Source: a virus. From it: a stretch of DNA of 52,908 nucleotides. The position numbers and the translations under genes were made by a program. This document shows positions 4,710 to 52,908 of this stretch, one piece after another. The notes under the pieces are model-generated. The model had not been told where the DNA came from, searched no databases, and was given only the letters and a program-made list of their open reading frames with translations. How positions within the stretch are numbered: the first letter of the stretch is position 1; each line of letters opens with the position of its first letter. Location of the stretch: the IMG/VR virus record IMGVR_UViG_3300013426_000006. The stretch is one strand, 5' to 3'.

Positions 4710-5038
4710 GAGTAATTTCACAGGATGGAACAATGGATTTTCCATATGACAACAGTTTGGCTTTTGTGAGCGAAAGCAATATAAAAAACAATGCTTATGT
4801 AAAAATGCAGCTGTGCGGCAATCCAGATATTGAAATTGTTGCTGAATATTCTTCCAAAGAAAAAGCATTAAAAGCCATGGAAATGCTTAGAAAAGCATAT
4901 AACAATAATGAGTTTTACCATTGCACAGCCACGACAAATACATTTCAAGAAACCATGGGGCTTTTAAGCAATGAAAAATTCAAAGAAACAACGAGTGAGT
5001 ATTTTCACTTTCCGCAGAATGATGAAATCGAGGTGTGA
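4706..5038 (+). CDS. hypothetical protein
   Basis: ORF overlapping both neighbours by 4 nt (operon-style). Confidence 0.55.
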   Translation: MRVISQDGTMDFPYDNSLAFVSESNIKNNAYVKMQLCGNPDIEIVAEYSSKEKALKAMEMLRKAYNNNEFYHCTATTNTFQETMGLLSNEKFKETTSEYFHFPQNDEIEV

Positions 5039-5040
5039 GT

Positions 5041-5772
5041 ATGAGATTGAAATGTTTAGGTTCATCATCGGCAGGAAATTGTTATTTATTAACTTCCGAC
5101 AGTGGAGAAACACTTATCCTTGATTGTGGAATACCTATTAAGGAAATCAAAAGAGGATTGAATTGGAACATTAAAGATGTTGTGGGCGTGTTATGCACCC
5201 ATAAGCACCTTGACCACAGCAAGTCGGTAAAAGATTTTAGACAAATGGGAAAAGCGATATATGGCTTATATTCAAAAGCTGTTTCCATGAGAACTATGAA
5301 GATAGGCGGATTTAATGTAAAGCCTTTTGATTTAACAACGATAGACGGAAACTGGACACACACAGACGCAAACGGCGAACCTTGCCCGATATTCGGCTTT
5401 CTGATTACTCACAATGAAATGGGAAGAATGCTTTACGTAACCGACACAGAGCTGATTAAGTGGCGATTTAAGGATATTAACCACATTCTCTTGGGTGTGA
5501 ACTATGACAAGGACTTAATCGACAGCGAAGATTCTGCAAAGGTAAATCACGTATTCAGAGGGCATATGAGCATTGACACAGCTTGCGATTTTGTTAAGGC
5601 AAATTATTCAGACAGCTTGCAGAATGTCATAATGTGCCATTTATCGAGCGAAAATGCTGACAAGGATTTATTTATTGAGAAGATGAAAAAGGTTGCTTGT
5701 GGGGCAAATGTAGATGTTGCAGAAGCAGGAAAGTCTTGGTCGCTTATCAATCCGAATGAATGTCCTTTTTAG
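5041..5772 (+). CDS. MBL-fold metallo-hydrolase (putative nuclease partner of RecT)
   Basis: HKHLDHS (HxHxDH) motif. GAGGTG lies 6 nt upstream of ATG 5041. Confidence 0.8.
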   Translation: MRLKCLGSSSAGNCYLLTSDSGETLILDCGIPIKEIKRGLNWNIKDVVGVLCTHKHLDHSKSVKDFRQMGKAIYGLYSKAVSMRTMKIGGFNVKPFDLTTIDGNWTHTDANGEPCPIFGFLITHNEMGRMLYVTDTELIKWRFKDINHILLGVNYDKDLIDSEDSAKVNHVFRGHMSIDTACDFVKANYSDSLQNVIMCHLSSENADKDLFIEKMKKVACGANVDVAEAGKSWSLINPNECPF

Positions 5773-7159: not shown

Positions 7160-7254
7160 GAGTTGATTGCATGATAACAATGATTTTTGAATTAAGAAAG
7201 GAATAACGAATCCTCGGTAAACCGAGGTTGTATCAAGATTAGAATGGTGAATTG

Positions 7255-8013
7255 ATGCGTGGTGTTATGACAAAAAGAAAACTAAAAGTATGTTGGGTAA
7301 GTGCTGGAATATCAAGTTTTATGGCTGGATATTTTGCAAAAGATGTAGACGAATGGATTTACATTGATATATCAGACCAGCATCCGGATAGTTTGAGATT
7401 TATTAAGGATTGTGAGAGAGCAATCGGGAAAGAGATACAGATATTGCAATCAAAGGAATATCGAAGTGTTGAAGAGTGTGTAAGGGCGTTCGGTGGTTTT
7501 AGGAATCCCGGAAATGGATTTGCACCTTGCACAAATTGGCTGAAAAAGAGAGTTCGTAAGGAGTGGGAAGAACAACACAGGGATTGTGAATTGACTTACG
7601 TTTGGGGATTTGACTTGAAAGAGAAGAATCGAGCCGAGAGGACAATCGAAGCTAACCCACAGGCAAAACATGAATTTCCACTTATTGACAAAGGACTTTC
7701 TAAAGAAGAGGTACATGGATTGTTTGAACGAACTTTTGATTTTGCCCGACCAAAAATGTATGAAATGGGTTATCCGAATAATAATTGCCTTGGCTGTGTG
7801 AAAGCGGGCATGGGTTATTGGAATAGGATTCGTAAGGATTTCCCGGAAGTATTTGATAACAGAGCAAAATTGGAGCGATTGGTCGGACATTCGATACTCA
7901 AGGACAGTAAAGGAAATCCGATATACCTTGACGAGTTAGACCCAAACAGAGGGAACATGAATACCGAAATATTCCCGGATTGCGGAATAATGTGTTATTT
8001 GAACATGAATTAG
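7255..8013 (+). CDS. PAPS-reductase/adenine-nucleotide alpha-hydrolase-like protein
   Basis: N-terminal WVSAGISS (PP-loop-like), APCTNWLKKR and LGCVKAG cysteine motifs. Start is ambiguous (7252 TTG, 7255 or 7267 ATG). Confidence 0.45.
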   Translation: MRGVMTKRKLKVCWVSAGISSFMAGYFAKDVDEWIYIDISDQHPDSLRFIKDCERAIGKEIQILQSKEYRSVEECVRAFGGFRNPGNGFAPCTNWLKKRVRKEWEEQHRDCELTYVWGFDLKEKNRAERTIEANPQAKHEFPLIDKGLSKEEVHGLFERTFDFARPKMYEMGYPNNNCLGCVKAGMGYWNRIRKDFPEVFDNRAKLERLVGHSILKDSKGNPIYLDELDPNRGNMNTEIFPDCGIMCYLNMN

Positions 8014-8054
8014 ATGTGAGTGGTGGGCGGTAGGGATAAAGGAGAGTGAAAAAT

Positions 8055-8213
8055 GTGGTAAATAATGATGAACATAATCAGTACAATCAAGGTGTGGACG
8101 ACATTGTGCAAGCAATCAAAGACCTTGTAAGTGAAAATCCAACAGATTGCTTTGCACAGATTGTATCTGATTTAGACCAGATAGCAAGCGACTTAAAGGA
8201 GTGTGAGACATAA
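8055..8213 (+). CDS. small hypothetical protein (52 aa; below the ORF-track cutoff)
   Basis: GGAGAG lies 8 nt upstream of GTG 8055. Acidic ORF ending TAA 8211-8213. Confidence 0.35.
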   Translation: MVNNDEHNQYNQGVDDIVQAIKDLVSENPTDCFAQIVSDLDQIASDLKECET

Positions 8214-8284
8214 GTGGCTACAAATTACAGAAGGTTAAAAGCTATCGAAAAAAGAACGTCTTTTAAGGAATCGAGGTGTAAATA

Positions 8285-8815
8285 ATGATATTACTTGAAG
8301 ATACAAGAAATCAAGTCGGAAAACACGACTTGAAAAACGAGTATTTCCAAAATAACGGAATAGAGGTTCGGAGAACGAAACTTTATTGCGGAGATTACAC
8401 ATTGCCGACAGACCAAAGTATATGTATAGACACGAAAAAGGACATACAGGAACTTATAGGGGACATATGCGGTAAATCTCACGAAAGGTTCAGGAATGAG
8501 CTTTTAAGGGCAAAAGAAAGCAACATCAAACTAATCATACTTACAGAAGATGATGGCGGATATTGCGACAGGAAGAAAACAATATACAACAAACCTGTAA
8601 AATGCGTAAATGATTTGTTCGGATGGAAAAACCCAAGATTGTTTATATGGCAAGGTGGAAAACAAAAATATCCAAAAGCGACAAAAGGGCAGACGTTAGC
8701 AAAGTGTCTTATTACACTTCAAGAGAAATATGGTTGCGAATTTAAGTTTACAACAAAGAAAAATAGCGGTTCTGAAATTATAAAGCTGCTTAATACTGAA
8801 AAATATGACGGTTGA
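8285..8815 (+). CDS. ERCC4/XPF-Mus81-like nuclease (possible junction resolvase)
   Basis: GDY...ICIDTKKDIQELIGDI resembles the GDY...ERK...D ERCC4 core. Confidence 0.5.
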   Translation: MILLEDTRNQVGKHDLKNEYFQNNGIEVRRTKLYCGDYTLPTDQSICIDTKKDIQELIGDICGKSHERFRNELLRAKESNIKLIILTEDDGGYCDRKKTIYNKPVKCVNDLFGWKNPRLFIWQGGKQKYPKATKGQTLAKCLITLQEKYGCEFKFTTKKNSGSEIIKLLNTEKYDG

Positions 8816-8881
8816 TGAAGAAATGCATAGGCTTGCAGAAACAGTATGAGAAGTTTATGCACTTGATAAATGAGGAAAATT

Positions 8882-9799
8882 ATGAGAATCGGACTGATTG
8901 ATGTTGATGGACACAACTTCCCCAATTTGCCTTTGATGAAACTTTCTGCTTATCATAAATCGCTTGGAGATAGTGTTGAATGGTACGAACCAATGTTTAG
9001 CGGTCATATGGATAGAGTTTATATGAGCAAAGTTTTTACATTTACTTCTGATTATGAGTATTGTATTGACGCAGACGAAATTATCAAAGGCGGGACAGGA
9101 TATTCTTATCCAGATGGCGGTAAACCATTAGCTGATGAGATAGAGCATATATACCCTGACTATTCTATCTATTATGAGAAATTACCGATGTCAAAAGACA
9201 CTGCTTATGGTTTTCTTACAAGAGGTTGCCCTAGAGGTTGCGATTTTTGCATAGTAGGGGAAAAGGAGGGGAGATGTTCTGTAAAAGTTGCCGATCTGTC
9301 GGAGTTTTGGAGAGGGCAGAAGAATATAGTTCTGCTAGATCCGAATATGTTTGCTTGCAAAGAGTGGAAAGATTTAAGCCAACAACTAATTGATAGCAAT
9401 GCTTGGGTTGATTTTTCGCAGGGCTGTGACATAAGAATTATGACCGATGAAAAAACGGAATATCTAAAGCAAATAAAAATAAAACAGATACATTTTGCTT
9501 GGGATAGGTACGAAGATAAAGATATTATCGTGCCTAAGTTTAAGAGGTTCGCCGAATTAACAGGGTGGAAATATTGGAAAATGACAGTTTATTGCTTGTG
9601 TAATTTTAACACAACTTTTGAACAGGATTTAGAAAGAATATATACACTTCGTGATCTTGGCTATTCGCCATATGTGATGCTTTATGAAAAAGAGAAGATT
9701 CCTCCCGGTCATAAACTAAGACAGTTACAGCGATATGCAAATAGCCGATGGATTTTTAGAAGCTGTGATAACTTTGAAGATTATAAGAAGAAACAATGA
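8882..9799 (+). CDS. radical SAM protein
   Basis: CPRGCDFC (CxxxCxxC) cluster. GAGG lies 6 nt upstream of ATG 8882. Confidence 0.7.
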   Translation: MRIGLIDVDGHNFPNLPLMKLSAYHKSLGDSVEWYEPMFSGHMDRVYMSKVFTFTSDYEYCIDADEIIKGGTGYSYPDGGKPLADEIEHIYPDYSIYYEKLPMSKDTAYGFLTRGCPRGCDFCIVGEKEGRCSVKVADLSEFWRGQKNIVLLDPNMFACKEWKDLSQQLIDSNAWVDFSQGCDIRIMTDEKTEYLKQIKIKQIHFAWDRYEDKDIIVPKFKRFAELTGWKYWKMTVYCLCNFNTTFEQDLERIYTLRDLGYSPYVMLYEKEKIPPGHKLRQLQRYANSRWIFRSCDNFEDYKKKQ

Positions 9800-9825
9800 G
9801 AAATTTATGGATTTATTGAAAGTGG

Positions 9826-10128
9826 GTGAAGATAATGTTAGTTCCGAAAGTTGATGCGAAAGAGTTTGAAAAATTTGGATTTAAGAAGTGCAAGGGTGAA
9901 TATGGCAAGAACGGTTGCTATTACCTTTGCGTTTCGAGAGGTATAAAGCTTCTTTTTGTAAGCGATGTGCATTTTGATGTTATGAATTGGAGAGACGATG
10001 ATCCGCGTATTCATAAAGATGCAAATTGCCGTTACAGAGATAACAGAACATACCTTGATATTATCTATGATCTTATCAAGGCGGATATGCTTATGAGTGA
10101 TTGCGTGAAAGTAGGTGATGCAGAATGA
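9826..10128 (+). CDS. hypothetical protein
   Basis: ORF in operon; start uncertain (GTG 9826 or ATG 9835). Confidence 0.5.
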   Translation: MKIMLVPKVDAKEFEKFGFKKCKGEYGKNGCYYLCVSRGIKLLFVSDVHFDVMNWRDDDPRIHKDANCRYRDNRTYLDIIYDLIKADMLMSDCVKVGDAE

Positions 10129-10340
10129 AAAGAAGTGAATGTATAGAAGTATTAGACCACTTAAAAGAAAAATTGCAAAAAAAAGAAATAATTGCTATAC
10201 AGGATAATGAAGACGATTATATATGTCCTGTATGCGGTCAGATTTTTAAATCTGAAGATATTATTAGATATTGCTACAAGTGGTGTTATAACTGTGGTCA
10301 GAGAGTGGAATTTATTCTTCCAAGAAAGAAACAGATTTAA
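10125..10340 (+). CDS. hypothetical zinc-ribbon protein
   Basis: CPVCGQ...CYNCGQ. Confidence 0.55.
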   Translation: MKRSECIEVLDHLKEKLQKKEIIAIQDNEDDYICPVCGQIFKSEDIIRYCYKWCYNCGQRVEFILPRKKQI

Positions 10341-10403
10341 CTAAAAATTAAAGAAAGGAACAGGACGCGCGCATAAAACCTAGGTTTCCTTTTGGTAGAT
10401 TTT

Positions 10404-10766
10404 ATGGATTTTGAAAATTATTCTTGTGATAATCAGATGTCTATATTTGATTTTACAAGAGAACCGATTAGAATAACAAAACCTATTCGGTTGATTGAAC
10501 TTTTTGCCGGATATGGTAGTCAAGCAATGGCATTAAAAAGAATAGGTGCTAAATTTGAGCATTACAGGGTTGTGGAGTTTGATAAATATGCTATTGCAAG
10601 CTATAACGCAGTACACGGAACAGATTTTCCTACAATGGATATAACAAAGGTTCACGCAGAAGATTTGAATATTTGCGACACGGAAACCTTTACTTACTTA
10701 CTTACTTACTTACTCTTTTCCGTGTACGGACCTGTCTGTTGCCGGAAAACAAGCCGGGATGTCTAA
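10404..10766 (+). CDS. C5-cytosine DNA methyltransferase, N-terminal fragment (motif I); frame lost at (TTAC)6
   Basis: ELFAGYGSQAMAL (FxGxG). The out-of-frame tail FSVYGPVCCRKTSRDV follows the repeat. Confidence 0.8.
   Translation: MDFENYSCDNQMSIFDFTREPIRITKPIRLIELFAGYGSQAMALKRIGAKFEHYRVVEFDKYAIASYNAVHGTDFPTMDITKVHAEDLNICDTETFTYLLTYLLFSVYGPVCCRKTSRDV
10690..10714 (+). repeat. (TTAC)6 tetranucleotide tract inside the methyltransferase coding sequence
   Basis: Six perfect units at 10690-10713 immediately 5' of the FPC catalytic motif. Confidence 0.97.
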
Positions 10767-11466
10767 GGGCAGCGGTACACGATCAGGTCTGTTGTGGGAA
10801 GTTGAAAGAATACTAACCGAAATCAAAGATAGTGGTGGAGAATTACCACAAATATTATTCATGGAAAATGTACCACAGGTACATGGCAAGAAAAATATTG
10901 ATGATTTCAAGAAGTGGTTGGAATTTCTTGAAAGTTTAGGTTATACGAATTATTGGGATGATTTAAACGCTAAGAATTACGGAGTTGCACAGAACAGAAA
11001 CAGATGCTTTATGTTTTCGTTCTTAGGAAACTATTCATATAGTTTTCCGCACCCGATGCCACTTGAAAAGAAGTTAAAGGACTATCTGGAAGACAGTGTT
11101 GATGAAAAGTATTATATCAACAACGAAAAGGCTGAAAAACTGATAAAACAGCTTATTGACAATGGCACATTACCGAATACAATCCCTAAGAGCAGAGCAG
11201 AGCAGAGCAGAGCAGAGCAGAGCAGACTTGCGTTGACGGAACAATCAACGAACCACAGCAAAGAGAGATTGCAAACTGCATCAAGGCAAGATATGACGCT
11301 GGAATCTCAAACTTGCGGTCGGGCGGAAACCTTGTTGTTAAAAGGAATGGTTGATAAAGATATTGAACCAACGGCGTCAGTGATTGATGTTTCGACAACG
11401 ATTATGTCAAGAGACTATAAGGGATTGAATAATTACGGAACGAATGGAGTAATTGAATGGAAGTAG
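10759..11466 (+). CDS. C5-cytosine DNA methyltransferase, central fragment (PC-proximal, ENV, QxRxR and TRD-like segments)
   Basis: This frame extends upstream to TYSFPCTDLSVAGKQAG. Also GTRSGLLWEVERIL, FMENVPQV, AQNRNRCFM, TIMSRDYKG. Confidence 0.8.
   Translation: MSKGSGTRSGLLWEVERILTEIKDSGGELPQILFMENVPQVHGKKNIDDFKKWLEFLESLGYTNYWDDLNAKNYGVAQNRNRCFMFSFLGNYSYSFPHPMPLEKKLKDYLEDSVDEKYYINNEKAEKLIKQLIDNGTLPNTIPKSRAEQSRAEQSRLALTEQSTNHSKERLQTASRQDMTLESQTCGRAETLLLKGMVDKDIEPTASVIDVSTTIMSRDYKGLNNYGTNGVIEWK
11191..11226 (+). repeat. (AGCAG)7 pentanucleotide tract inside the methyltransferase locus
   Basis: Seven perfect units at 11191-11225. Confidence 0.97.
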
Positions 11467-11516
11467 TAGGAAGTATATACACAGGAGTTTCAGAGGGTTT
11501 TCAGCGCGGAATTATC

Positions 11517-11525
11517 GGGGGGGGG
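11517..11525 (+). repeat. G9 homopolymer inside the methyltransferase locus
   Basis: Nine consecutive G between the VVGSIYTGVSEGFQRG segment and the ISRCVKAETHD segment, which lie in different frames. Confidence 0.95.
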
Positions 11526-11571
11526 TATCTCCCGATGCGTGAAGGCTGAAACACACGATTTAGGAGTAGTT

Positions 11572-12183
11572 ATGGCAGAAATACAAGAAAAACGATTAGG
11601 TAATATATATTCTTTCGATGGCGGTAATTTTGCCGGGAATGTTTACGACAAAGAATGCATATCTCCCACATTAAAAACTATGCAGGGCGGAAATTCTCAA
11701 CCTATGGTGGTTGCCATGCGTGGAAGAAATCCAAACAACCCATCGGATAGAACCAAGGGAAGTCCAACAGAACAACGGTTAGAAGTGAATACGCAAGGCA
11801 CAAGTAATTGTTTGACAAGTGTGCAGAAAGATAATATGGTGTTGGAGAAACCTTTGTTATTAGGCGGAGTTGGTAAAGAAAACAAGTTTGGAAAACAGTA
11901 TAGGCAAGGGAATAGGGTGTATAGTTCTGATGCTTGCGCTATGGCATTAAACGCTCAACCTGTTGGGAATTCTGGTGGAAACTCATATTTATATAATGTC
12001 GGATATCGTATCAGAAAACTAACGCCTAGAGAATGTGGACGGCTGATGGGCGTATCTGATGAAGATATTGACAAAATGGCAGCGGTCAACAGTAACACAC
12101 AGTTGTACAAGCAATTTGGCAATAGCATAGTAGTTGATGTTATGTGCGCCATGTTTAAGAATTTGAACATTGAGCAGGAGTGA
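11572..12183 (+). CDS. C5-cytosine DNA methyltransferase, C-terminal fragment (TRD-like modules, motifs IX-X)
   Basis: ECISPTLKTMQGG, RKLTPRECGRLMG, YKQFGNSIVV. AGGAG lies 5 nt upstream of ATG 11572. The open frame reaches back to GTG 11539. Confidence 0.8.
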   Translation: MAEIQEKRLGNIYSFDGGNFAGNVYDKECISPTLKTMQGGNSQPMVVAMRGRNPNNPSDRTKGSPTEQRLEVNTQGTSNCLTSVQKDNMVLEKPLLLGGVGKENKFGKQYRQGNRVYSSDACAMALNAQPVGNSGGNSYLYNVGYRIRKLTPRECGRLMGVSDEDIDKMAAVNSNTQLYKQFGNSIVVDVMCAMFKNLNIEQE

Positions 12184-12187
12184 TTAA

Positions 12188-12394
12188 ATGGTTAAACCAC
12201 TAGCGCCGTGCATGAATTGTTCTGATAGGCATATCGGTTGCCATGGTATATGTGACAAGTATAGGGCATATACAGAGGCGCATGAGGAACTTAAAGCGAG
12301 TATTCGACAACAGAAGTTTGTACATAATTCTATAAAAGATATGCATAAGGAACAATGGGCACGGTATTCGAGAAATCGTCACAAAGAAAATTAG
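12188..12394 (+). CDS. hypothetical Cys-rich protein
   Basis: CMNCSDRHIGCHGIC. Confidence 0.5.
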   Translation: MVKPLAPCMNCSDRHIGCHGICDKYRAYTEAHEELKASIRQQKFVHNSIKDMHKEQWARYSRNRHKEN

Positions 12395-12402
12395 GAGTGT
12401 GA

Positions 12403-12807
12403 TTGAAAATGAGCAAAAGCAAAGAAGAGCAGGCAAGACGTGAGGGAATGTCTTATGCGCTTAGATACGCAAGAGAACATGGCTTAGATGCCTTAGAAGA
12501 GGATTTGAAGAAGCGTGGAGCGTATAACATACCTGTGCGGATTGATGATAAGGCATTGCAGGAGTTTACAGATAACGCCAAGAATATGATGCTTGACACG
12601 ATTCTGATTCTGGCATCGGTAACACTGCATGATGAATTTGGGTTCGGTAGAGAACGGCTAAATCGTTTTAAGAAGCGGTTTAATTTTAAGGCGGAGTGTA
12701 TCGGTGAAAACTATACCGATTGGAACGATCAGATATCAATATTAAAGGAAGAGTGCGGATTGGAGTATTCCATCCGCATGAACGAAAAGGATGCGAGGTT
12801 GAAATAA
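12403..12807 (+). CDS. hypothetical protein
   Basis: AGGAG at 12393. Start is TTG 12403 or ATG 12409. Confidence 0.55.
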   Translation: MKMSKSKEEQARREGMSYALRYAREHGLDALEEDLKKRGAYNIPVRIDDKALQEFTDNAKNMMLDTILILASVTLHDEFGFGRERLNRFKKRFNFKAECIGENYTDWNDQISILKEECGLEYSIRMNEKDARLK

Positions 12808-13040
12808 TGAATCACAGGAAGTGGAAAAAGGAATATAAAAAGCGGTACAGAATACGACCGATTATTTTCCTTGACAAGAAGCGGAAAGAAAAGGCTATGG
12901 CTATGATACGTGATTATATGTCACAGACTACTATCCGTATAACCGAGAATCAGTATTATTTGGAACTTGGGTGTTATTACAACGAGACTTCGATGGATAA
13001 CAGGAGAACAATGCTTAAAGTATGGGAAGGCGGTGTATAG
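12807..13040 (+). CDS. hypothetical protein (77 aa)
   Basis: ATG overlaps the upstream TAA (TAATG). The longer listed ORF 12720.. overlaps the previous gene. Confidence 0.5.
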   Translation: MNHRKWKKEYKKRYRIRPIIFLDKKRKEKAMAMIRDYMSQTTIRITENQYYLELGCYYNETSMDNRRTMLKVWEGGV

Positions 13041-13041
13041 A

Positions 13042-13239
13042 ATGGCAATGGCGACTTACGAAGAAGTGTGCAAGATGGGGTACTATAGTGCGATTGACGA
13101 TGTCATGAACATGCTTAACGATATAAAATTTGGCGGCGGTACAAAAGAAACACTTGCTTGCGCAAATGCGACACTTAACTACATCAAGGAGAAAGTAGAG
13201 AAACTAAGAAGTGGAGGCGTGGTAGATAATGACGATTGA
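13042..13239 (+). CDS. hypothetical protein (65 aa)
   Basis: ATG 13042 lies directly after the upstream stop. Confidence 0.5.
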   Translation: MAMATYEEVCKMGYYSAIDDVMNMLNDIKFGGGTKETLACANATLNYIKEKVEKLRSGGVVDNDD

Positions 13240-13525
13240 TGAAGCAATAGAAAATCTAAAACACGACTATTTGATATGCGAATATATAGATTATATAGCA
13301 CTACAGATTGCAGGATGGCTGGAAGAGTTGAAAGCATACAGAGAACAGCATCAGGCATTATGTGATGCATACGATGTAAACACAGTTGAAGATATTTACG
13401 ATAAAGCGATTGACGATTTTATCAAAGCGGTAGACAAACATTGTGGATATTATTCAGGAGAATGCAAAAATCTTACGCGTGATGATATTCTCGAAATTGC
13501 AAAGGAGTTGAAGGATAATGGTTAA
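13229..13525 (+). CDS. hypothetical protein
   Basis: Overlapping operon ORF. Confidence 0.5.
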   Translation: MTIDEAIENLKHDYLICEYIDYIALQIAGWLEELKAYREQHQALCDAYDVNTVEDIYDKAIDDFIKAVDKHCGYYSGECKNLTRDDILEIAKELKDNG

Positions 13526-13814
13526 GAAAATTAGGGTTTATATCAGCGGTCCGATCACAGGAACTGCGGATTACATGGAACGATTTGAAGAAGCTGAGAA
13601 ACGCTTAAATGGAGAATTCAGCGTTATCAATCCGGCAAAATTAAATTCAAATATGCCGGACGACACGACGCACGAAGAGTATATGAAGATGTCTATATGC
13701 ATGTTATCTATGTGCGATGCAATTTTCATGCTGAATGGATGGGAAGATAGCGTAGGGGCGTGCGAAGAAAACATTTATGCGTTGAAAAACGGCATGCGGA
13801 TTTTTAGGGAGTGA
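13518..13814 (+). CDS. DUF4406 / nucleoside 2-deoxyribosyltransferase-like protein
   Basis: VYISGPITG...CDAIFMLNGWEDSVGACEE pattern. Confidence 0.55.
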   Translation: MVKKIRVYISGPITGTADYMERFEEAEKRLNGEFSVINPAKLNSNMPDDTTHEEYMKMSICMLSMCDAIFMLNGWEDSVGACEENIYALKNGMRIFRE

Positions 13815-18386: not shown

Positions 18387-18406
18387 GAAAGGAGCATAAA
18401 ATAAAA

Positions 18407-19606
18407 ATGGGAAAGGATTTAAAAGGCAAAGAATTAGGCAATGGAATTTCTCAAAGAAAAAATGGAAAATATTGTGCGAGATACATTGATAGATTTGGCA
18501 AAAGAGTAAGCATTTATGATAGCAAACTAACAGACATTCGTAAAAAGCTGGCTCTTGCTGTTGCCGAAAATGAAACATTTACAAGCATAAAGGATAACAT
18601 AAAACTTGATGAATGGTTTGTAAAATGGGTAGAAGTGTATAAAAAGAAAAGTGTGCGTCCTAGTACACTCAGGACGTACACATATATTTACAATAAAAAT
18701 ATATCACCTTTTCTTGGAAATTTCAACATTAATTCAATAACAAAAAGCGAAGTGCAAAATTTGATTTCTAAAGCTGATGACTTTGGATATGGTTATGAGC
18801 GGCAACAAAAGATTAAAAATATCTTATCAGATATGTTTTCAAGGGCTATGGATGATGAGCTTATGCTTAAAAATCCTGCAAGGAATGTAAAAATATACGC
18901 AAAAAAGAATCTAACTGCTAAATCACTTTCAAAAGACGAACAGGAAACCTTTTTTGAGTGTTCTGCAGGAACCTTTTACGACAATCTTTTTAATGTTGCT
19001 GTAAATACCGGATTAAGGCCAGGTGAATTATTTGCACTTACGGAAAATGATGTAAACTTTGAAGATAATTACATTGAAGTCAATAAGACACTTGTGTATC
19101 AAAAATATCTTGATGATGATTGCAAAACGTTTCATATAGGGCCACCTAAAACAGAACAAAGCAACAGAAAAGTGCCGATGAACTCGCAATGCAAAAAATA
19201 CATTCAAAAGCAAATTATGCAAAAGAAAGTTGTTGAATCAAAAAATCCTAATAGAAAAAGTCAATTTCTTTTTACAACTAAATTCAATACTCCACTTAAT
19301 TCTGTATTGTATAGTGCAGCAATCAAATCTGTTGTTGAAATTATTAACCAGACTAGAGATGCCAGCGATAGGATGGAAGTGTTTAACGGGCATACTTTTA
19401 GACACACTTTCGCAACAAGGTGTTTTGAATCAGGAGTGGAGCCTAAAGTAGTTCAATCATATTTAGGTCATGCAACATTAAGTATGACTATGGATTTATA
19501 TACTCATGTTATGCCTACAAAGTTAAATAATGACATTGAGCGTATTGTTTCCAAGTGTGATAACATTGTTGAATTTAGAAAAAAGCGTGGTGTAAGCGTG
19601 GTGTAA
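18407..19606 (+). CDS. int: tyrosine site-specific integrase
   Basis: RPGELFALT, HTFRHTFATRCFESGV, LGHATLSMTMDLYTHV (R..HxxR..Y). Confidence 0.92.
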   Translation: MGKDLKGKELGNGISQRKNGKYCARYIDRFGKRVSIYDSKLTDIRKKLALAVAENETFTSIKDNIKLDEWFVKWVEVYKKKSVRPSTLRTYTYIYNKNISPFLGNFNINSITKSEVQNLISKADDFGYGYERQQKIKNILSDMFSRAMDDELMLKNPARNVKIYAKKNLTAKSLSKDEQETFFECSAGTFYDNLFNVAVNTGLRPGELFALTENDVNFEDNYIEVNKTLVYQKYLDDDCKTFHIGPPKTEQSNRKVPMNSQCKKYIQKQIMQKKVVESKNPNRKSQFLFTTKFNTPLNSVLYSAAIKSVVEIINQTRDASDRMEVFNGHTFRHTFATRCFESGVEPKVVQSYLGHATLSMTMDLYTHVMPTKLNNDIERIVSKCDNIVEFRKKRGVSVV

Positions 19607-20124: not shown

Positions 20125-20566
20125 TTATATGCCACAGTATCAATCATATCAACAGGCATATAACCCTATGCAGAACATTCAGAGGTTCCAGCAACCACAG
20201 CAAGAACAGATGCAACAGGGTATCTTTGGTAAAGTTGTGCAATCTCAAGATTCCATAGTAGCAAATGATGTACCTATGAATGGAAGTGTTGCATTTTTCC
20301 CTAAGAGCGACTTATCGGAGATTTATGCAAAACAATGGAGTGCAGACGGAACAATCTCTACAATGGTTTTTAAGCCACTTCAAAATGATAACCCTAACAA
20401 GTCATCACAAGACACAGAAAAATTGAAAATAGGGCTATCAGACGAAGCTACAGAGATATTTAACAAGCACTTCGATACCTTGTTTTCAAAAATAGAAGAA
20501 CTTGAAAAGAAAATCGACGAAAAATCTTTGACTAAGACTGCAAGAACAAAAGTTAGTCAAGAATAG
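20087..20566 (+). CDS. hypothetical protein with Q/N/Y/P-rich N-terminus
   Basis: GAGGAGG upstream. First 45 aa are dominated by Q, N, Y and P. Confidence 0.6.
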   Translation: MQINPYQIPQVNNYMPQYQSYQQAYNPMQNIQRFQQPQQEQMQQGIFGKVVQSQDSIVANDVPMNGSVAFFPKSDLSEIYAKQWSADGTISTMVFKPLQNDNPNKSSQDTEKLKIGLSDEATEIFNKHFDTLFSKIEELEKKIDEKSLTKTARTKVSQE

Positions 20567-20609
20567 TCTAAGAATAGTCTAAGAATAGTCTAAGAATAGT
20601 CTAAGAATA
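20554..20609 (+). repeat. 11-nt tandem repeat AAGAATAGTCT, about 4.6 copies
   Basis: Perfect units at 20559, 20570, 20581 and 20592, with partial units at both ends. The tract spans the upstream stop codon and the intergenic region. Confidence 0.95.
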
Positions 20610-20623
20610 AGGATGGTGGTTTT

Positions 20624-20842
20624 ATGAATTTTTTTCAATCATTTAGAAGTCCACAACAGTTTTTGCAGAGCATGATAGGAAATAGTCAAGTCATGCAAAA
20701 CCCGATGGCTAAAAATGCTATCGGAATGGCACAAAGCGGAGATATGAAAGGTATAGAGCAGATGGCGCGTAATTTGTGCCAAGAAAAAGGAATAAACCCG
20801 GATGAAATGATAAATCAGATAAAAAGCAGAATGGGTATGTAA
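20624..20842 (+). CDS. hypothetical protein (72 aa, Q/M-rich)
   Basis: AAGGATGGTGG upstream. Confidence 0.55.
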   Translation: MNFFQSFRSPQQFLQSMIGNSQVMQNPMAKNAIGMAQSGDMKGIEQMARNLCQEKGINPDEMINQIKSRMGM

Positions 20843-25503: not shown

Positions 25504-26142
25504 ATGACAAAGATTAAGGAACAGGAAAGCGAGTACACGCAGTTTATAACATGTGTAGAGGATATGTCAGCGGTCGCTTCTGATATAGTTTCTAAATATT
25601 GCGATATAAATTCTATAGATGAATCAGACATATATCCGAGTATTTGGAATGACATTATCACAGAGTTGTATATTAAATTATTCAGACCGTGCAATAGATT
25701 ATTAAAAACAGATAGTAATTTATATAATCAATATGATATAGATAAAGTGGTATATATATATAATAATATATATAAGAGATTATGTAATAAACACTGTCAA
25801 GAAATATCGCAAAAAGGGTTTATAGATATGTCTGGGATAGATAAGCAAACGCTGTATAACTGGAAGGCGCCAAGCTCCTCGAGTTTCGACTTGCACGAAA
25901 AAATCATGGAAGATAATGAGGAAAGTCTTTTTTCGCTCATGAAGGACAGACGCAACAACCCAATGAAGATACTTCCGAAGCTGAACAAGGTACACGGTTG
26001 GAGCATGCCGGGCGCACGAGACAGAACCGACACAAAGCAAGCCTTGACAGCTGCCGATCTTCCACAGTTAGGCACAGGAACACAAGATATAGCACGGATA
26101 GAAACAAAACCACTAGATATAGTGAATTGCGGTGTAAAATAA
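25504..26142 (+). CDS. putative terminase small subunit (HTH-containing)
   Basis: GFIDMSGIDKQTLYNWK HTH-like segment, and later NNPMKILPKLNKVHGW resembling TerS C-terminal motifs. GGGAGGG RBS. Confidence 0.4.
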   Translation: MTKIKEQESEYTQFITCVEDMSAVASDIVSKYCDINSIDESDIYPSIWNDIITELYIKLFRPCNRLLKTDSNLYNQYDIDKVVYIYNNIYKRLCNKHCQEISQKGFIDMSGIDKQTLYNWKAPSSSSFDLHEKIMEDNEESLFSLMKDRRNNPMKILPKLNKVHGWSMPGARDRTDTKQALTAADLPQLGTGTQDIARIETKPLDIVNCGVK

Positions 26143-26568
26143 AAGCGTGCGTTTTATTTACAACGCAAGTTTGTTGGATTTTTTGTGAATTTTGCACATA
26201 AAAAAATGGTCCGGTTTAACTCTGGCGTGCTGCTTATAGGGGTATGGGGGTTAGACATGGTGCGCAAAATACTCCTACTAAGTTCCTCAAACATTTTTCA
26301 AAATAAAAAGTCCTATTATATATAATATAAATATATAAACCAATTACACATATAATAAATAAATTATATAAACGTAATGCATATATAAATATTATATAAA
26401 GGCTTTATAGATGACTGATAAATAGGTTTTTGATAAATAGAATTCGGATTTCTAAAAATTTTTCAAAAACAAAAAGGACGTGATTGAAGATTGAATAAAA
26501 GGCAAAATGGCACCTAGGGAAGTATATTGAATTGTCGGGAAAAAATAAAAAAGCCGCAAATCAGCGAC

Positions 26569-28259: not shown

Positions 28260-28382
28260 ACTTAACAGCAAACTAGCTTGACGAAGCGAAAAGCGGAACT
28301 GTGACCGCCTGTTTGCTGATTTGTTGTTCACAGGTTCTAAGCACAAGTGGAGTGCTGTTATCTTTCACAGGAGGTAATTTAC

Positions 28383-29330
28383 ATGAACGAAGAAGAATTA
28401 AAGGCTAAGGTTGACTATGAGTTTTCTCACAGATTCAATCACACTTTGCATGCCTATATTGACATTTCAGAGGATTTGATTGCTGGAACATTATTATCTC
28501 AAATAATGTTTTGGTTTTCTGAAACAAAGGATAAAAAACGAAAAATACGGATTTATAAAGATGGAAATTATTGGCTCGCTAAAGGCAGAGAGGAATGGGT
28601 CGATGAAATAAGAATTTCCAAAAAGCAATACGATAATGCGGTTAAGAAACTAAAGGAAAAGGAATTTGTAGAGACAAAACTGTTCAAATTTAATGGAGTT
28701 CCAACAACTCACATCAGACCGATATATGAAAATATAAATTCTGCAATAGCAAAATGGAAAGATGATATTTCAAAAGAGATATGTTGCAGTTTTTCGGATT
28801 TACCCAAAGGGGAAAATGGAATTTACCCAAACGGCGAAAAGGATATTCCCCATTCGGCAAATTCTTTAACAGAGAATACTTACATAGACAATAATACAGA
28901 TAATAATTATGCTTTTTCTTTACAAGAAAAAGGAACATTATGCTTTTCTTCCGAAAAGGCGGTCGGGAAAAGCGATGTTAAATATCCGATTGATGATGTT
29001 CCGTATCTGGTCGGTCAATACACAGAGCCATACACGCTAGGAAGCCGAATAATCGACCTTAGGAACATTATCCTGTATTTTATCGACAGGTACAATGAAA
29101 ATTCAACTACGAAGCATGTAGACGTATCAGACAAGGCAATTAAGAACATAGTCGATGCATATTTTCATCCGACAGGCAAGGTTGTTGACTGTGAAGCGGA
29201 AGATTATATGTGGATGATAGATGATTACTTTGCAACCGATTACAAGATGAATGGCTGGCGAGTGTCTAAGAGCCTGCAGCATTTCTTTTCTGGGAAGATC
29301 AGGGAAAACATTTACATGAAACGGATATAG
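28383..29330 (+). CDS. hypothetical protein with N-terminal winged-helix-like DNA-binding domain
   Basis: AGGAGG lies 8 nt upstream of ATG 28383. LLSQIMFWF...YWLAKGREEWVDEIRISKKQYDNAVKKLKEKEFVE. Confidence 0.55.
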   Translation: MNEEELKAKVDYEFSHRFNHTLHAYIDISEDLIAGTLLSQIMFWFSETKDKKRKIRIYKDGNYWLAKGREEWVDEIRISKKQYDNAVKKLKEKEFVETKLFKFNGVPTTHIRPIYENINSAIAKWKDDISKEICCSFSDLPKGENGIYPNGEKDIPHSANSLTENTYIDNNTDNNYAFSLQEKGTLCFSSEKAVGKSDVKYPIDDVPYLVGQYTEPYTLGSRIIDLRNIILYFIDRYNENSTTKHVDVSDKAIKNIVDAYFHPTGKVVDCEAEDYMWMIDDYFATDYKMNGWRVSKSLQHFFSGKIRENIYMKRI

Positions 29331-30134: not shown

Positions 30135-30238
30135 CAAAAATTACCGGCTAACAACAGGAGTTAGTCGCTACCCTAGAAAAATTATAGGCAGAGATATCTA
30201 TGGCATCTCTGCTTGAATGAGTGGAGGTGCTTTTTTCT

Positions 30239-33043
30239 ATGGCATCTAAAGAGTTAATCAACACAGTAAATCAATATGACAATTTTATAAAGACACACCC
30301 GGTCGATGAATCCGTAATATCTGCTTATGTAGAAGCGTGCAAGGTCGCTATAAACGGCGAAAAGGATATTGAGTACGGGTTGCAACTTACGAAGCGGTCT
30401 AAGGGCATTATAGAGCGTTTCTGCATGGAGCAGACAGGCGGTACGATATGGGATTTAGATTATTACCATTTCAAACATGAGACAACACCATATGATCTGT
30501 TAGACCAATATCTAAATATCTATAAGCTGGAATCTCATTACAAGTTTGAGAGCTTTATGATTTTTATGGAGAAGAACCGACCACCTTGGGAAAGATTCTA
30601 TCTTCCGAGACAAAATCCTTTGAAACAAGTGGCAGATTTAATACAGGACTTATACGATGATAAACTTGACGAGGGCATGGTTTTTATGCCTGGTCGCGTG
30701 GGGAAAGCTCAACCAGTGGATTCTTTAGTGTTGACAGAAAATGGATTCAAAAAAATGGGAGAAATAAAGATTGGAGACACCGTTATTTCTGGTAGCGGGG
30801 AAAAGTGCAATATTACCGGAATTTTTCCACAGGGCGTAAAAGATGTTTATAGAATTACATTTACAGATGGAACAAGTGCTGAATGCTGCAAAGAGCATTT
30901 ATGGAAGGTACAAACAAATGAAGATAGAAGAATAAGACCAGAAAGAGGAAAAACAGAACAATCATATAGGATAGTAGAATTAAAAAACATGATTGGAGAT
31001 TTGAAATTATCAACAGGAGAAAACAAATATTCTGTTGACTATGCAAATCCGGTTCAATTCGATAAAAAAGAATTGAAAGTGCCACCATATGTTTTAGGAG
31101 CGCTTATAGGAGACGGATCTTTAACTGGCGGAAATTGTGCTATATGCAATCCAGAAATAGACATTATTAAAAAAATTAAAAAATATTGTAATGGATATGC
31201 AAAAATTAGCACCTACAAAAGCGAAAATAGATGCCCTAGATTTTCTCTCGTTGGAAATAATATAAGAAAAGATTTGAGATATTATGATTTGCTTGAAAAA
31301 AAATCTTATGAAAAAAGTATACCATATGATTATTTGCATTCTTGCGTAGAGGATAGAATAGAACTTTTAAGAGGTCTGTGTGACACAGACGGAAGTGTCA
31401 AAAAAAATTCTGCATTCATAGATTATAGCACATCATCTAAACAACTTTCGGAGGATGTAGTATATCTTGTTCAATCTCTTGGAGGAAGAGCGACAGTTAA
31501 AAAAAGTGAATCCCACTACATAAAAGATGGGAAAAAGATAAATTGCAAAGACAGATACAGAATAACAATATCTTTTGGGAATGGAATAGTGCCAGTTTCA
31601 TCTAAAAAATGCTTAGATAGGTACAAAGATAATAAAAAAGTAACAAAAAAATTTATTGAAAAAATTGAATATTCAAGAAAAACAGAGTGCCGATGCATAA
31701 TGATAGACGATCCGACACACTTGTATATAACAAATGATTTTATTGTTACGCATAATACGCAGATTGTAAAAATGGGTAATTTATGGTTCGGTTCAAACAG
31801 ACCAGAGAGATCAAATTTGTACTCTGCATATTCTGATAAGATCACGGGCGGATATTATGACGGAATAAAAGAAATGGTCACAGACCCGACGTATACATAT
31901 CACGAAATTTACCCGGATAATAAAATTGACGGTCTGACAGACGGAAAAGATTTAACTATCGACATAAACAGAAAAAAAACATACCCAACATTTACAATGA
32001 GATCAATTTATGGAACGCTGAACGGTGCGTGTGATTGTGACGGACTTGGAGTTTACGATGATTTATTTAGCGGTATTGATGAAGCGTTAAGTGAAGATCG
32101 GCAAAATACGGTATGGAACAAATTTGACAACAACTACATGCCTAGAATAAAGCCGGGGAAAGCGAAACTTCTTGGAATCGGTACAAGATGGGCACCAAAA
32201 GACGTGCAAGGGCGCAGGCTTGAATTACTTAACAATGATCCTGAATACGCAGAGATACGGCACCGAGAAATTGTTATTCCAGCTCTTGATGAGAACGGAG
32301 AAAGTAATTTCGACTATCCGTATAAGTTGGGATTTACAACGAAAGATTATAAAAGACGTATGTCGTCATTCGAGAACAACGATGATATGGCATCGTGGCT
32401 TGCACAGTATCAGCAAGAACCTATTGAACGTAAAGGACAAATGTTTAATATTGATGCAATGAATTTTTTCAATCCTGCTGAAATCGAAGGAGTACGCCCA
32501 GACAGAATATTTGCGGCAAACGACCCGGCATATGGTGGTGGCGACTTTGTTTCAATGCCTATATGCTATGAAATCAACGGAGAATACTATATAACTGATG
32601 CTGTCTACAACGACGGAGATAAGGACATTACAATTCCAGAGGTAACAAGCAGAATAGAATCACACTTAGATAAGTTTCCAAACAAAACTGCAGAGGTACA
32701 CTTCGAGGAAACGAAATCGACGTCCGGTTACAGACTTGCGTGCGAAAAAATATGGGAAGATGACGGATACCCGGTAAATGCAACGCACGATCCGGCAGAT
32801 AACCAAACCGCAAAGATGGACAGAATCAAAAACCATGCTCCGGATATTCGTAAACTGCATTTCGTAGCAATGAAGTATCAGACAAAAGAATACCGAAAAT
32901 ATTTTCAGAACATTCTTTCATGCACGTTTGAAGGAAAAATGAAACATGATGATGGCGTAGATTCTACGGCGCAGCTATGCGACATGATTTACGGAGATAG
33001 AAAAGCAAGAAAAAAGACTATGATTATTTCAAGTCCAATATAA
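30239..33043 (+). CDS. terL: terminase large subunit, interrupted by an in-frame intein
   Basis: The P-loop PGRVGK|T is reconstituted after removing 30707-31756. Also GVYDDLFSG, NDPAYGGGDFV and HDDGVDS nuclease-type motifs. The portal gene lies downstream. Confidence 0.9.
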   Translation: MASKELINTVNQYDNFIKTHPVDESVISAYVEACKVAINGEKDIEYGLQLTKRSKGIIERFCMEQTGGTIWDLDYYHFKHETTPYDLLDQYLNIYKLESHYKFESFMIFMEKNRPPWERFYLPRQNPLKQVADLIQDLYDDKLDEGMVFMPGRVGKAQPVDSLVLTENGFKKMGEIKIGDTVISGSGEKCNITGIFPQGVKDVYRITFTDGTSAECCKEHLWKVQTNEDRRIRPERGKTEQSYRIVELKNMIGDLKLSTGENKYSVDYANPVQFDKKELKVPPYVLGALIGDGSLTGGNCAICNPEIDIIKKIKKYCNGYAKISTYKSENRCPRFSLVGNNIRKDLRYYDLLEKKSYEKSIPYDYLHSCVEDRIELLRGLCDTDGSVKKNSAFIDYSTSSKQLSEDVVYLVQSLGGRATVKKSESHYIKDGKKINCKDRYRITISFGNGIVPVSSKKCLDRYKDNKKVTKKFIEKIEYSRKTECRCIMIDDPTHLYITNDFIVTHNTQIVKMGNLWFGSNRPERSNLYSAYSDKITGGYYDGIKEMVTDPTYTYHEIYPDNKIDGLTDGKDLTIDINRKKTYPTFTMRSIYGTLNGACDCDGLGVYDDLFSGIDEALSEDRQNTVWNKFDNNYMPRIKPGKAKLLGIGTRWAPKDVQGRRLELLNNDPEYAEIRHREIVIPALDENGESNFDYPYKLGFTTKDYKRRMSSFENNDDMASWLAQYQQEPIERKGQMFNIDAMNFFNPAEIEGVRPDRIFAANDPAYGGGDFVSMPICYEINGEYYITDAVYNDGDKDITIPEVTSRIESHLDKFPNKTAEVHFEETKSTSGYRLACEKIWEDDGYPVNATHDPADNQTAKMDRIKNHAPDIRKLHFVAMKYQTKEYRKYFQNILSCTFEGKMKHDDGVDSTAQLCDMIYGDRKARKKTMIISSPI
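30707..31756 (+). mobile_element. 350-aa intein with LAGLIDADG homing-endonuclease domain, inserted in the TerL Walker A
   Basis: Starts AQPVDSLVLTENG and ends FIVTHN, followed by Thr. LGALIGDGSL and LLRGLCDTDGSV are the two LAGLIDADG motifs. Confidence 0.85.
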
Positions 33044-52472: not shown

Positions 52473-52908
52473 AGGTTACAAGGGATTTAACAAGGATATG
52501 ACGTGCCGCGGATTTCAGTATGAAGAAGGCGAGGAATACGAAACAGAAGAAGCAGAAATATGTGAGAAAGGCTTCCATGCTTGCGAATATCCTCTTGACT
52601 GTTTTAGTTATTACAATCCTACAGAAAGCGTATATCACGAAGTAGAGCAAAGTGGAGAGATAAGCAAGAATGAAGATGAGGACACGAAGCTTGCGTCTAC
52701 TAAGATTAAGATTGGAGCGAAATTGAGCATTGCCGGGATTGTACAGGCGGCTATTGAATACACATCAAGCAGAGTGAAAAAGGAATCGGACAATGATTCA
52801 AGAAAAGGAGCTTCCTCGGCAACAGGTGACTACGGAGCTTCCTCGGCAACAGGTAACTGTGGAGCTTCCTCGGCAACAGGTGACTACGGAGCTTCCTCGG
52901 CAACAGGT
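52456..52908 (+). CDS. N-terminal part of the junction-wrapping repeat protein (DUF7666-like N-domain)
   Basis: GGGAG lies 7 nt upstream of ATG 52456. MSEVIKGYKGFNKDMTCRGFQYEEGEEYE..CEKGFHACEYPLDCFSYY. The frame is open to the window end and continues at position 78. Confidence 0.8.
   Translation, partial: MSEVIKGYKGFNKDMTCRGFQYEEGEEYETEEAEICEKGFHACEYPLDCFSYYNPTESVYHEVEQSGEISKNEDEDTKLASTKIKIGAKLSIAGIVQAAIEYTSSRVKKESDNDSRKGASSATGDYGASSATGNCGASSATGDYGASSATG
52807..52908 (+). repeat. first 3.8 units of the 27-nt tandem array
   Basis: GASSATGDY, GASSATGNC, GASSATGDY, GASSATG... Confidence 0.95.

Follow-up and report, generated by a model that had tools for sequence, protein, structure and literature searches.

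A phage C5 cytosine methyltransferase gene with three slippage-prone repeats as a candidate contingency locus

Introduction

In the Type III mod genes of Haemophilus and Neisseria, a tetranucleotide tract lies within the open reading frame (ORF), its copy number sets the frame, and its length is polymorphic between close relatives. Repeats can also act on specificity: in the NgoAV hsdS gene of Neisseria gonorrhoeae, which carries a poly-G tract, and in Type I hsdS/hsdM genes bearing simple sequence repeats (SSRs), repeat length alters the recognition domain that is translated and hence the specificity of the enzyme. Here we describe a C5 cytosine methyltransferase (methylase) gene in IMG/VR virus record IMGVR_UViG_3300013426_000006. 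The stretch analysed comprises 52,908 nucleotides and is called the window below; all positions refer to it, and the methylase features lie on its + strand. As read from the assembled sequence, the feature is larger than the single TTAC tract noticed in a first-pass annotation and is a predicted multi-repeat system in one gene. With a probability of roughly 0.78, we interpret it as a contingency locus in which three slippage-prone repeats gate a multi-cassette C5 methylase.

The closest enzymes by architecture are of two kinds. The multispecific methylases of the Bacillus phages SPR, phi3T, rho11s and SPbeta are single polypeptides in which a number of target-recognising domains stand in tandem between motif VIII and motif IX, and to our knowledge SPR-type enzymes lack repeats. 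In M.AquI, the larger subunit contains motifs I-VIII together with a portion of the variable region, and the smaller one the rest of this region and motifs IX-X (PMC3404938).

Methylase phase variation by repeats is a bacterial paradigm, and phage contingency loci have only recently been proposed, for single homopolymers (PMC12633550). Poly-G tracts in the receptor-binding proteins of Fletchervirus, a Campylobacter phage, have been described as phage contingency loci (Sorensen 2021). Homopolymer contingency loci have been proposed for T2/T4 in a 2025 preprint, in which a poly-G tract in the methylase gene of Bordetella phage BPP-1 is also mentioned, as unstudied (PMC12633550).

Results

The TTAC tract and the reading frames it separates

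The N-terminal methylase ORF (10404-10766, frame 0) starts at ATG 10404 and encodes motif I, the AdoMet-binding motif (LFAGYG, 10500-10517). It runs through six perfect TTAC units (10690-10713), which are followed by one extra T, into ...TYLLTYLLFSVYGPVCCRKTSRDV, and ends with 18 out-of-frame residues and a TAA stop at 10764-10766; the frame reads ...DTETFTYLLTYLLFSVYGPVCCRKTSRDV up to this stop. The Ser-Phe-Pro-Cys codons of motif IV, which include the catalytic Cys, lie immediately after the tract in frame 1 (SFPC, 10714-10725; FPC, 10717-10725). There the sequence reads ...TYSFPCTDLSVAGKQAG, and no start codon was found in this frame of the window upstream of the SFPC codons. Because the sixth TTAC unit is present, motif I and FPC are in different frames, and no ORF of the window assembly contains both motif I and the catalytic Cys. 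When the arithmetic was recomputed, the two frames joined on the loss of one unit or the gain of two; that is, five or eight units are in frame, and three, four, six or seven are not. As assembled, the window allele would be OFF at this tract, a candidate master ON/OFF site.

The first-pass annotation had reported six perfect units just 5' of the Pro-Cys codons, an upstream frame stopping at 10764-10766 and a next frame carrying FPC. Every detail of the tract was correct, and both frames were confirmed by translation. Its statement that five or eight units would leave the frame uninterrupted also held, the best 80 relatives being five units long in this region and in frame. In 100 dinucleotide-preserving shuffles, no match to the TTAC tract was seen at two or fewer mismatches.

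As in the Type III mod genes, a tetranucleotide repeat lies in a methyltransferase ORF and its copy number sets the frame. The likeness to the Haemophilus and Neisseria mod loci, also pointed out in the first-pass annotation, stands for the mechanism, slipped-strand phase variation, but does not extend to the enzyme, which is a phage C5 methylase and not a Type III mod protein. The mod enzymes are N6-adenine methyltransferases encoded on bacterial chromosomes, whereas the present enzyme is a C5 cytosine methylase, orphan-looking and encoded by a phage. A further difference is that three repeats of different unit length are present in one gene, one of which picks cassettes and does not simply turn expression ON or OFF.

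Tract length among relatives

The best 80 IMG/VR relatives were picked by tblastn with an in-frame query, which biases the set to in-frame alleles. In these relatives, 2-5 of the five units are perfect. Note that the lack of six-unit alleles among them is uninformative, because the in-frame query selected them. Other lengths were found in two direct DNA-pattern scans of IMG/VR, in which tract length was scored as the distance from motif I to the Ser codon. A distance of 206 nt (four units) was present in at least 8 loci, 210 nt (five units) in at least 81, 214 nt (six units) in at least 8 and 218 nt (seven units) in at least 2; one of the two scans selected for at least six units, and these allele frequencies are rough. 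Among the five-unit loci (at least 81), 30/81 had a pure tract and 51/81 carried one imperfect unit.

The closest comparison is with L215, a contig from a Lachnospiraceae metagenome-assembled genome (MAG), which differs from the window at one position in 1442 nt (window positions 9787-11226) and carries (TTAC)5. This allele is in frame, and in it, as in other five-unit alleles, motif I and motif IV are in one polypeptide, which is not the case in the window. At its end, the L215 contig breaks off within an AGAGC tract that has reached at least 11 copies.

Truncated products are also abundant among predicted proteins. About 5.8 billion proteins were searched with the truncated 120-aa product as query, and the best 120 clusters were classified by their tail. 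Among these, 37 had the six-unit tail (..TYLLTYLL[FIV]S.YG..CRKTSRNV, then stop), 55 the four-unit tail (..FTYLLTLFRV..CCGKLREY, then stop), 6 a seven-unit tail and 5 a three-unit tail; more than 100 distinct clusters of the best 120 are thus N-terminal fragments with tails that fit three, four, six or seven units. Contig ends do not explain these truncated products, because many of the contigs are 50-60 kb long. The exact 120-aa product of the window was called on 4 public contigs, and a SPAdes-style node, NODE_72_length_52508_cov_16.655196 (16.7x), is 100% identical to window positions 7404-13766.

These results bear on the possibility that the sixth unit is an assembly or sequencing artefact. 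What we have is a consensus sequence, and some platforms miscount short repeats. However, at 24 nt the tract fits easily within a single read, 37 other protein clusters show the same type of truncation and more than 60 of the best 120 show other lengths, and the flanking genes have no comparable indels: the + strand of the window holds 62 stop-free stretches of at least 100 codons (45.5 kb summed; frames can overlap). The exact allele occurs on four contigs, one of them the identical 16.7x node. An artefact is very unlikely, close to negligible, and the comparison indicates that slippage at the TTAC tract is recurrent in nature. The slipped-strand reading of the first-pass annotation is supported both by the survey of related contigs, which was positive for copy-number differences (four to seven units in IMG/VR relatives; five in L215 versus six in the window), and by the truncated-protein clusters.

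Given the encoded peptide and the codon usage, the probability of a pure series of TTAC codons is about 4e-4. We do not claim selection for TTAC purity, since shared ancestry explains the frequency of pure series equally well. In one protein, P0099 (126 aa), the TTAC-encoded peptide is joined directly to sequence like that of cassette 1 (..TFTYLLT followed by INNPQQREVANCIPARYDNGISKRKKAGNLVAENMY), suggesting that the tract and the variable region were brought together by deletion or by recombination.

Organisation of the methylase gene

Motifs and profile matches predict that the gene encodes a phage C5 cytosine methyltransferase with several cassettes for target recognition. The enzyme would normally consist of two polypeptides, alpha and beta. 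The Pfam profile PF00145 matched alpha, once repaired, with E = 2e-48 over profile positions 2-252, and beta with E = 1.5e-10 over positions 235-322. Alpha comprises motifs I-VIII and one cassette, and beta further cassettes and motifs IX-X. The rest of alpha is read in frame 1 (10759-11466) and includes motif VI (MENVP, with ENV at 10861-10875), motif VIII (QNRNR, 10990-11004), a pentanucleotide tract, a linker and the TRD2 cassette. Motifs IX (RIRKLTPRE, 12007-12033) and X (QFGNS, 12112-12126) are in the second polypeptide, so that motifs VI, VIII, IX and X are all present. The nearest relatives of solved structure are M.MpeI and M.HhaI.

The ATG of beta (11457) overlaps the alpha stop (11464-11466 closes the alpha frame) and is preceded at 7 nt by GGAG (11446-11449); the resulting frame ends at 11549. 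The split into two ORFs with an overlapping stop and start (GAATGGAAGTAG) is found in all complete relatives except one, and a Shine-Dalgarno (SD)-like motif precedes the beta ATG in 54/56 loci. We rejected ribosomal frameshifting at this junction: there is no slippery site, the SD is conserved and the ATG overlaps the stop. Because of the conserved SD and the overlapping ATG, the gene is read as two ORFs. The gene caller of the ENA record splits it into products of 120, 235 and 203 aa.

Between motifs VIII and IX the window encodes six cassettes of about 35-50 aa each, with the core pattern (S/C)x(T/C)(L/I/V) and a hydrophobic end. TRD1 (11229-11354, frame 0) reads CVDGTINEPQQREIANCIKARYDAGISNLRSGGNLVVKRNG and then stops, and is homologous to an in-frame cassette of the intact enzyme of Dulem virus 39, the only close relative in the GenBank phage collection. 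The Dulem virus 39 enzyme is an intact single chain of 527 aa with none of these repeats. TRD2 (about 11359-11463, frame 1) reads ...STTIMSRDYKGLNNYGTNGVIEWK before the alpha stop. TRD3 follows the beta ATG (MEVVGSIYTGVSEGFQRGIIGGG...) and is ended early, at TGA 11547-11549, by a frameshift at a G9 tract. The three remaining cassettes (ISPTLKT from 11659, SNCLTSV from 11803 and ACAMALNA from 11932) lie, together with motifs IX and X, in an ORF of 203 aa called beta' (11562-12183), which has AGGAG at 11562-11566, 5 nt before ATG 11572. An SD-like motif precedes this internal ATG in 43/43 loci.

Like the SPR-type enzymes, the methylase is encoded by a phage, and its long variable region, from motif VIII to motif IX, consists of several tandem cassettes, each about 40 aa in length. 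Beta shares 33% identity with M.SPRI, the multispecific enzyme of Bacillus phage SPR, and two cassettes can be aligned with parts of its variable region, which is where the recognition domains of SPR are located (GNVYNSSGLSPTITTNKGEG with NTVYDENALCPNITTVEGGG, and SHTLSASDWRGLNRNQKQNAVVEV with AATLRARDYKGLDNYGSNGVIEV). In L068, a rare fused allele of 599 aa, the variable region spans about 270 aa, as against about 35 aa for the gap that the alignment leaves between the matched segments of M.MpeI. Unlike the SPR-type single polypeptides, the locus has two ORFs, more cassettes (six), and gating by repeats and overlapping frames.

The split itself is of the M.AquI type, with motifs I-VIII and IX-X on overlapping ORFs divided in the variable region and the alpha stop overlapping the beta ATG. 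M.AquI differs in being cyanobacterial, monospecific and without repeats, and the assembly of alpha with beta is proposed here by analogy only. C5 methylases annotated as two genes or as alpha/beta subunits are also present in other Firmicutes phages, Streptococcus phage Javan129 (L234) and phage MM1 (L233), and two-polypeptide C5 methylases may be common in phages.

A three-state tract after the catalytic core

The second repeat of the window, (AGAGC)7.6, lies at 11189-11226. In relatives, this alpha site, which comes directly after the conserved core sequence ..DNGTLP.., is occupied by one of two repeats, (AGAGC)n (n = 3-13) or (GACA)n (n = 4-23). The outcome of reading is set by n mod 3. 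With remainder 0 (state X), translation enters TRD1, as ..QTCVDGTINKPQQREVANCIKARYDxGISNLRSDGNLVV.. to a stop; with remainder 1 (state Y), the same DNA is read in another frame, as a 38-residue linker followed by the second cassette (..TLRARDYKG..GVIEWK, then stop); with remainder 2 (state Z, null), an immediate stop follows (..ADLR). The window has n = 7 and is in state Y: the linker of 38 codons, within 10759-11466, is read across cassette 1 in the alternative frame, and TRD1, which overlaps it, is unread.

Among 65 complete loci, 31 were in state Y, 25 in state X and 9 in state Z, counted without regard to kinship. The two overlapping frames are preserved independently of the state that a locus is in, with frame X intact in 62/63 and frame Y in 63/63. 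Note that 14 contigs among 81 loci end inside a (GACA)n or (AGAGC)n tract, for instance L007, L015, L018, L056 and L076, at about locus position 4835. These contig ends are suggestive of length heterogeneity within samples, or of tracts beyond the k-mer of the assembler, both of which they fit.

As in NgoAV hsdS, the length of this repeat is predicted to change specificity and not just expression. Unlike NgoAV, a bacterial Type I adenine system with a separate S subunit, one tract is here followed by two cassettes in overlapping frames, with three states.

Poly-G tracts in the beta cassettes

The third repeat of the window is a G9 tract at 11517-11525, inside TRD3 and just before ISRCVKA, and it is out of frame. 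Frames at poly-G sites were called from codon-anchored flanks; two frames are open at the window G9. The in-frame length at this site is G8, not G7 or G10, and alleles with the same flanks range from G5 to G9. Poly-G runs occur at three homologous places, each before a cassette core: EKVLRGG before ICPTLR, GIIGGG before ISRCVKA (the second site, that of the window G9) and RIYDVGG before CSPTLS. In relatives, run lengths of 6-9 G are found with identical flanks, and in more divergent relatives from MAGs, runs of G7-8 are placed at Gly-Gly positions elsewhere in cassettes.

At the third site (site B), 12 alleles with a run of at least 6 G were in frame and 28 out of frame; where the run was interrupted, 8/8 were in frame. 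In L008, L010 and L011 (about locus positions 5150-5240) the third site has degenerated, with RIYDEGANIE.. in place of RIYDVGG-CSPTLS, and is out of frame. In these loci the cassette looks like it is locked OFF and not switchable.

Confinement and rate of change of the repeats

Each of the three repeats, (TTAC)6, (AGAGC)7.6 and G9, lies inside an ORF and sets its frame. All three are in one 1.8-kb gene of the 52.9 kb, and they are the only tetranucleotide repeat of at least 4 copies, the only pentanucleotide repeat of at least 4 copies and the only G/C run of at least 8 in the window; shuffled windows contained on average 0.07 repeats of these classes. The same over-representation was found across 56 complete loci. 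Of the G/C runs of at least 7, 51 were inside the methylase genes (95 kb) and 0 in the 363 kb of flanks, and of the tetra- and pentanucleotide repeats of at least 4 copies, 80 were inside and 1 outside. Elsewhere in the window, only 12% of glycine codons are GGG.

Tract length also differed between near-identical genomes, as in L215 versus the window and in the length surveys. Near-identical gene pairs, with 0-1 mismatches outside the tracts, differed in tract length in 12/14 cases, and in these comparisons tract lengths change far faster than the surrounding sequence.

Such DNA-level differences are relevant to a second explanation, in which the frameshifts are bypassed by transcriptional slippage or ribosomal frameshifting and the tracts tune the amount of enzyme, the switch being graded and not binary. 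For a mod gene of Mycoplasma bovis, suppression of the frameshift in SSR 'OFF' frames has been reported (bioRxiv 10.64898/2026.04.01.715767), and G9 runs are in general plausible polymerase slippage sites. However, the TTAC tract has no slippery heptamer or stimulatory structure, slippage of RNA polymerase on a tetranucleotide repeat is not established, and length differences in the DNA of near-identical genomes are the signature of switching at the DNA level. We regard bypass as decidedly improbable as the explanation of the tracts; it is, in any case, compatible with a contingency locus and not exclusive of it.

A third explanation is that the tracts are mutational hotspots without an adaptive switch, in a methylase that is often dispensable, so that the frameshifts represent recurrent loss of function on the way to decay. 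Several observations go in this direction. Of the alleles sampled, the majority carry at least one tract that is out of frame, and the in-frame fraction at site B is near the 1/3 expected without selection; TTAC purity is not conserved, the in-frame alleles being mostly interrupted; some cassettes, as in L008, L010 and L011, look locked OFF with a degenerated tract; and relatives without SSRs exist (Dulem virus 39 and several MAG copies). Decay, however, does not predict that the repeats are confined to the methylase gene, at 51 versus 0 and 80 versus 1 relative to the 363 kb of flanks, nor that two different repeat motifs, of up to 23 copies, occupy one site. It also sits badly with the GGG-rich Gly runs, which run contrary to codon bias, with two overlapping frames that are open in nearly all loci regardless of state, and with the under-representation of the null state (9/65). 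Moreover, as a general pattern and not from a locus-by-locus check, the breaks in most loci fall at the tracts or at the alpha/beta junction. Decay alone is consequently an unlikely account of the locus.

Nevertheless, several points weigh against reading the gene as a contingency locus in all its parts. As an evolved switch, the TTAC tract is the least convincing of the repeats in the gene, because it encodes a conserved peptide (TYLLTY) and its purity is not kept, most in-frame alleles (51/81) carrying synonymous interruptions; in addition, five or six tetranucleotide units are short for a fast switch. The state counts at the alpha site ignore shared ancestry among loci. At the poly-G sites, about two thirds of the long alleles are out of frame, which also fits neutral length drift in an often dispensable gene. 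Finally, the first ATG after site B (..STMQGG..) has no convincing SD, and the OFF state at this site may silence the whole of beta and not one cassette. Because no convincing SD accompanies the restart ATG, we do not claim cassette-specific switching at site B.

The phage and its other repeats

The phage carries an integrase, RecT, a large terminase and a portal protein, all on the + strand, and relatives are mostly found in Lachnospiraceae, Roseburia, Hungatella and Eubacterium MAGs. The phage is temperate and its host probably a gut Lachnospiraceae. Pfam scans of the neighbouring genes gave nothing useful. Between 0.6 and 3 kb upstream of the methylase there are a PAPS-reductase-like ORF (7243-8013, phrog_424) and a radical-SAM ORF (8870-9799, phrog_9298), neither with a Pfam match, which might be further DNA-modification genes. 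The large terminase ORF (30221-33043) is unusually long, at 940 aa, and over residues 143-430 it has additional matches to P-loop families that bear the annotations DnaC-like loader, primase and helicase.

Repeats of other classes are present elsewhere in the window. One and the same 27-bp tandem repeat occurs at both ends (1-692, 25.6 copies; 52807-52908, 3.8 copies); a 305-aa ORF (3-920) begins with the (GASSATGxx)n nonapeptide repeat that it encodes. It is probably within this repeat that the contig was opened, and the genome is thus probably circular or terminally redundant. The identical ENA contig is 52,508 nt long, 400 nt shorter than the window (52,908), and the copy number of the 27-bp repeat is uncertain. 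An 11-bp tandem repeat, TAGTCTAAGAA, lies at 20554-20609 (5.2 copies, 97% matches), between the integrase gene (18389-19606) and an ORF starting at 20823; it may represent a group of binding sites or be located close to attP. Finally, a (TA)13-like run (25751-25774) and an AT-rich 33-bp repeat (26317-26396, 2.4 copies) are located about 2 kb upstream of a DnaD-like initiator gene (28341-29330), and this AT-rich region may be an origin or a regulatory region.

Discussion

The frames, the length polymorphism, the confinement of the repeats and the conserved alternative frames are all documented by comparing assembled genomes, and they are best accommodated by a contingency locus. In the proposed mechanism, the TTAC tract would act as the master ON/OFF site, any length except five or eight units parting motif I from the catalytic Cys, with loss of activity. 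The AGAGC or GACA tract would then set the frame of the ribosome after the catalytic core, leading it into TRD1, into the linker and TRD2, or to a stop. The poly-G tracts would determine whether N-terminal cassettes of beta are included or dropped, the window G9 dropping TRD3. The AGGAG and ATG located 23 nt after the G9-induced stop would allow a shorter beta, with three cassettes and motifs IX-X, to be made. Since an SD-like motif is present at the internal ATG in all 43 relatives and the 203-aa ORF was called in the ENA record, production of this shorter form from ATG 11572 is plausible. Overall, the window as assembled would be in the OFF condition (TTAC6); alpha would be set to cassette 2, and beta would lack cassette 3.

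On this mechanism, it appears that phages of the population turn the methylation of their own DNA on and off, and probably also change between target specificities. We infer that switching is reversible and frequent within the population, that alpha and beta assemble into an active enzyme, and that each cassette confers its own methylation specificity. The most elaborate version, a hierarchical repeat-coded selector in which TTAC gates the core, the second tract picks among cassettes in overlapping frames and the poly-G tracts add or drop more, so that one lineage could produce many methylation patterns, is put forward tentatively; it is possible, with somewhat more room for doubt than for confidence.

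Methylation shields phage DNA from Type II restriction and exposes it to methyl-dependent restriction. The benefit of switching would thus be bet-hedging between protection from the former and exposure to the latter, a population that produces all states surviving on either kind of host. If the hierarchical selector is real, it would be a hedge between Type II evasion and Type IV avoidance, and host methylation in the lysogen could vary too.

Like phage contingency loci, this is a phage gene with hypermutable repeats, of the kind used, or proposed to be used, for bet-hedging; it differs from those loci in that they are single homopolymers, mostly in host-range genes. From the described phasevarions it differs in enzyme class and in carrier, a phage. 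In a literature search of incomplete coverage, in which absence is no proof, we found no phage C5 methylase with several repeats, none with tetra- or pentanucleotide tracts, and no selection of cassettes through overlapping frames.

Gene callers routinely cut these methylase genes into 2-5 fragments, which would pass as pseudogenes. Tetranucleotide, pentanucleotide and poly-G tracts are nevertheless carried in one C5 methylase gene by a widespread family of human-gut phages, represented by at least 389 IMG/VR contigs. If the cassettes differ in specificity, the gene would be a compact device for combinatorial variation of an epigenetic mark, and would offer a testable case of phage bet-hedging against opposing restriction systems.

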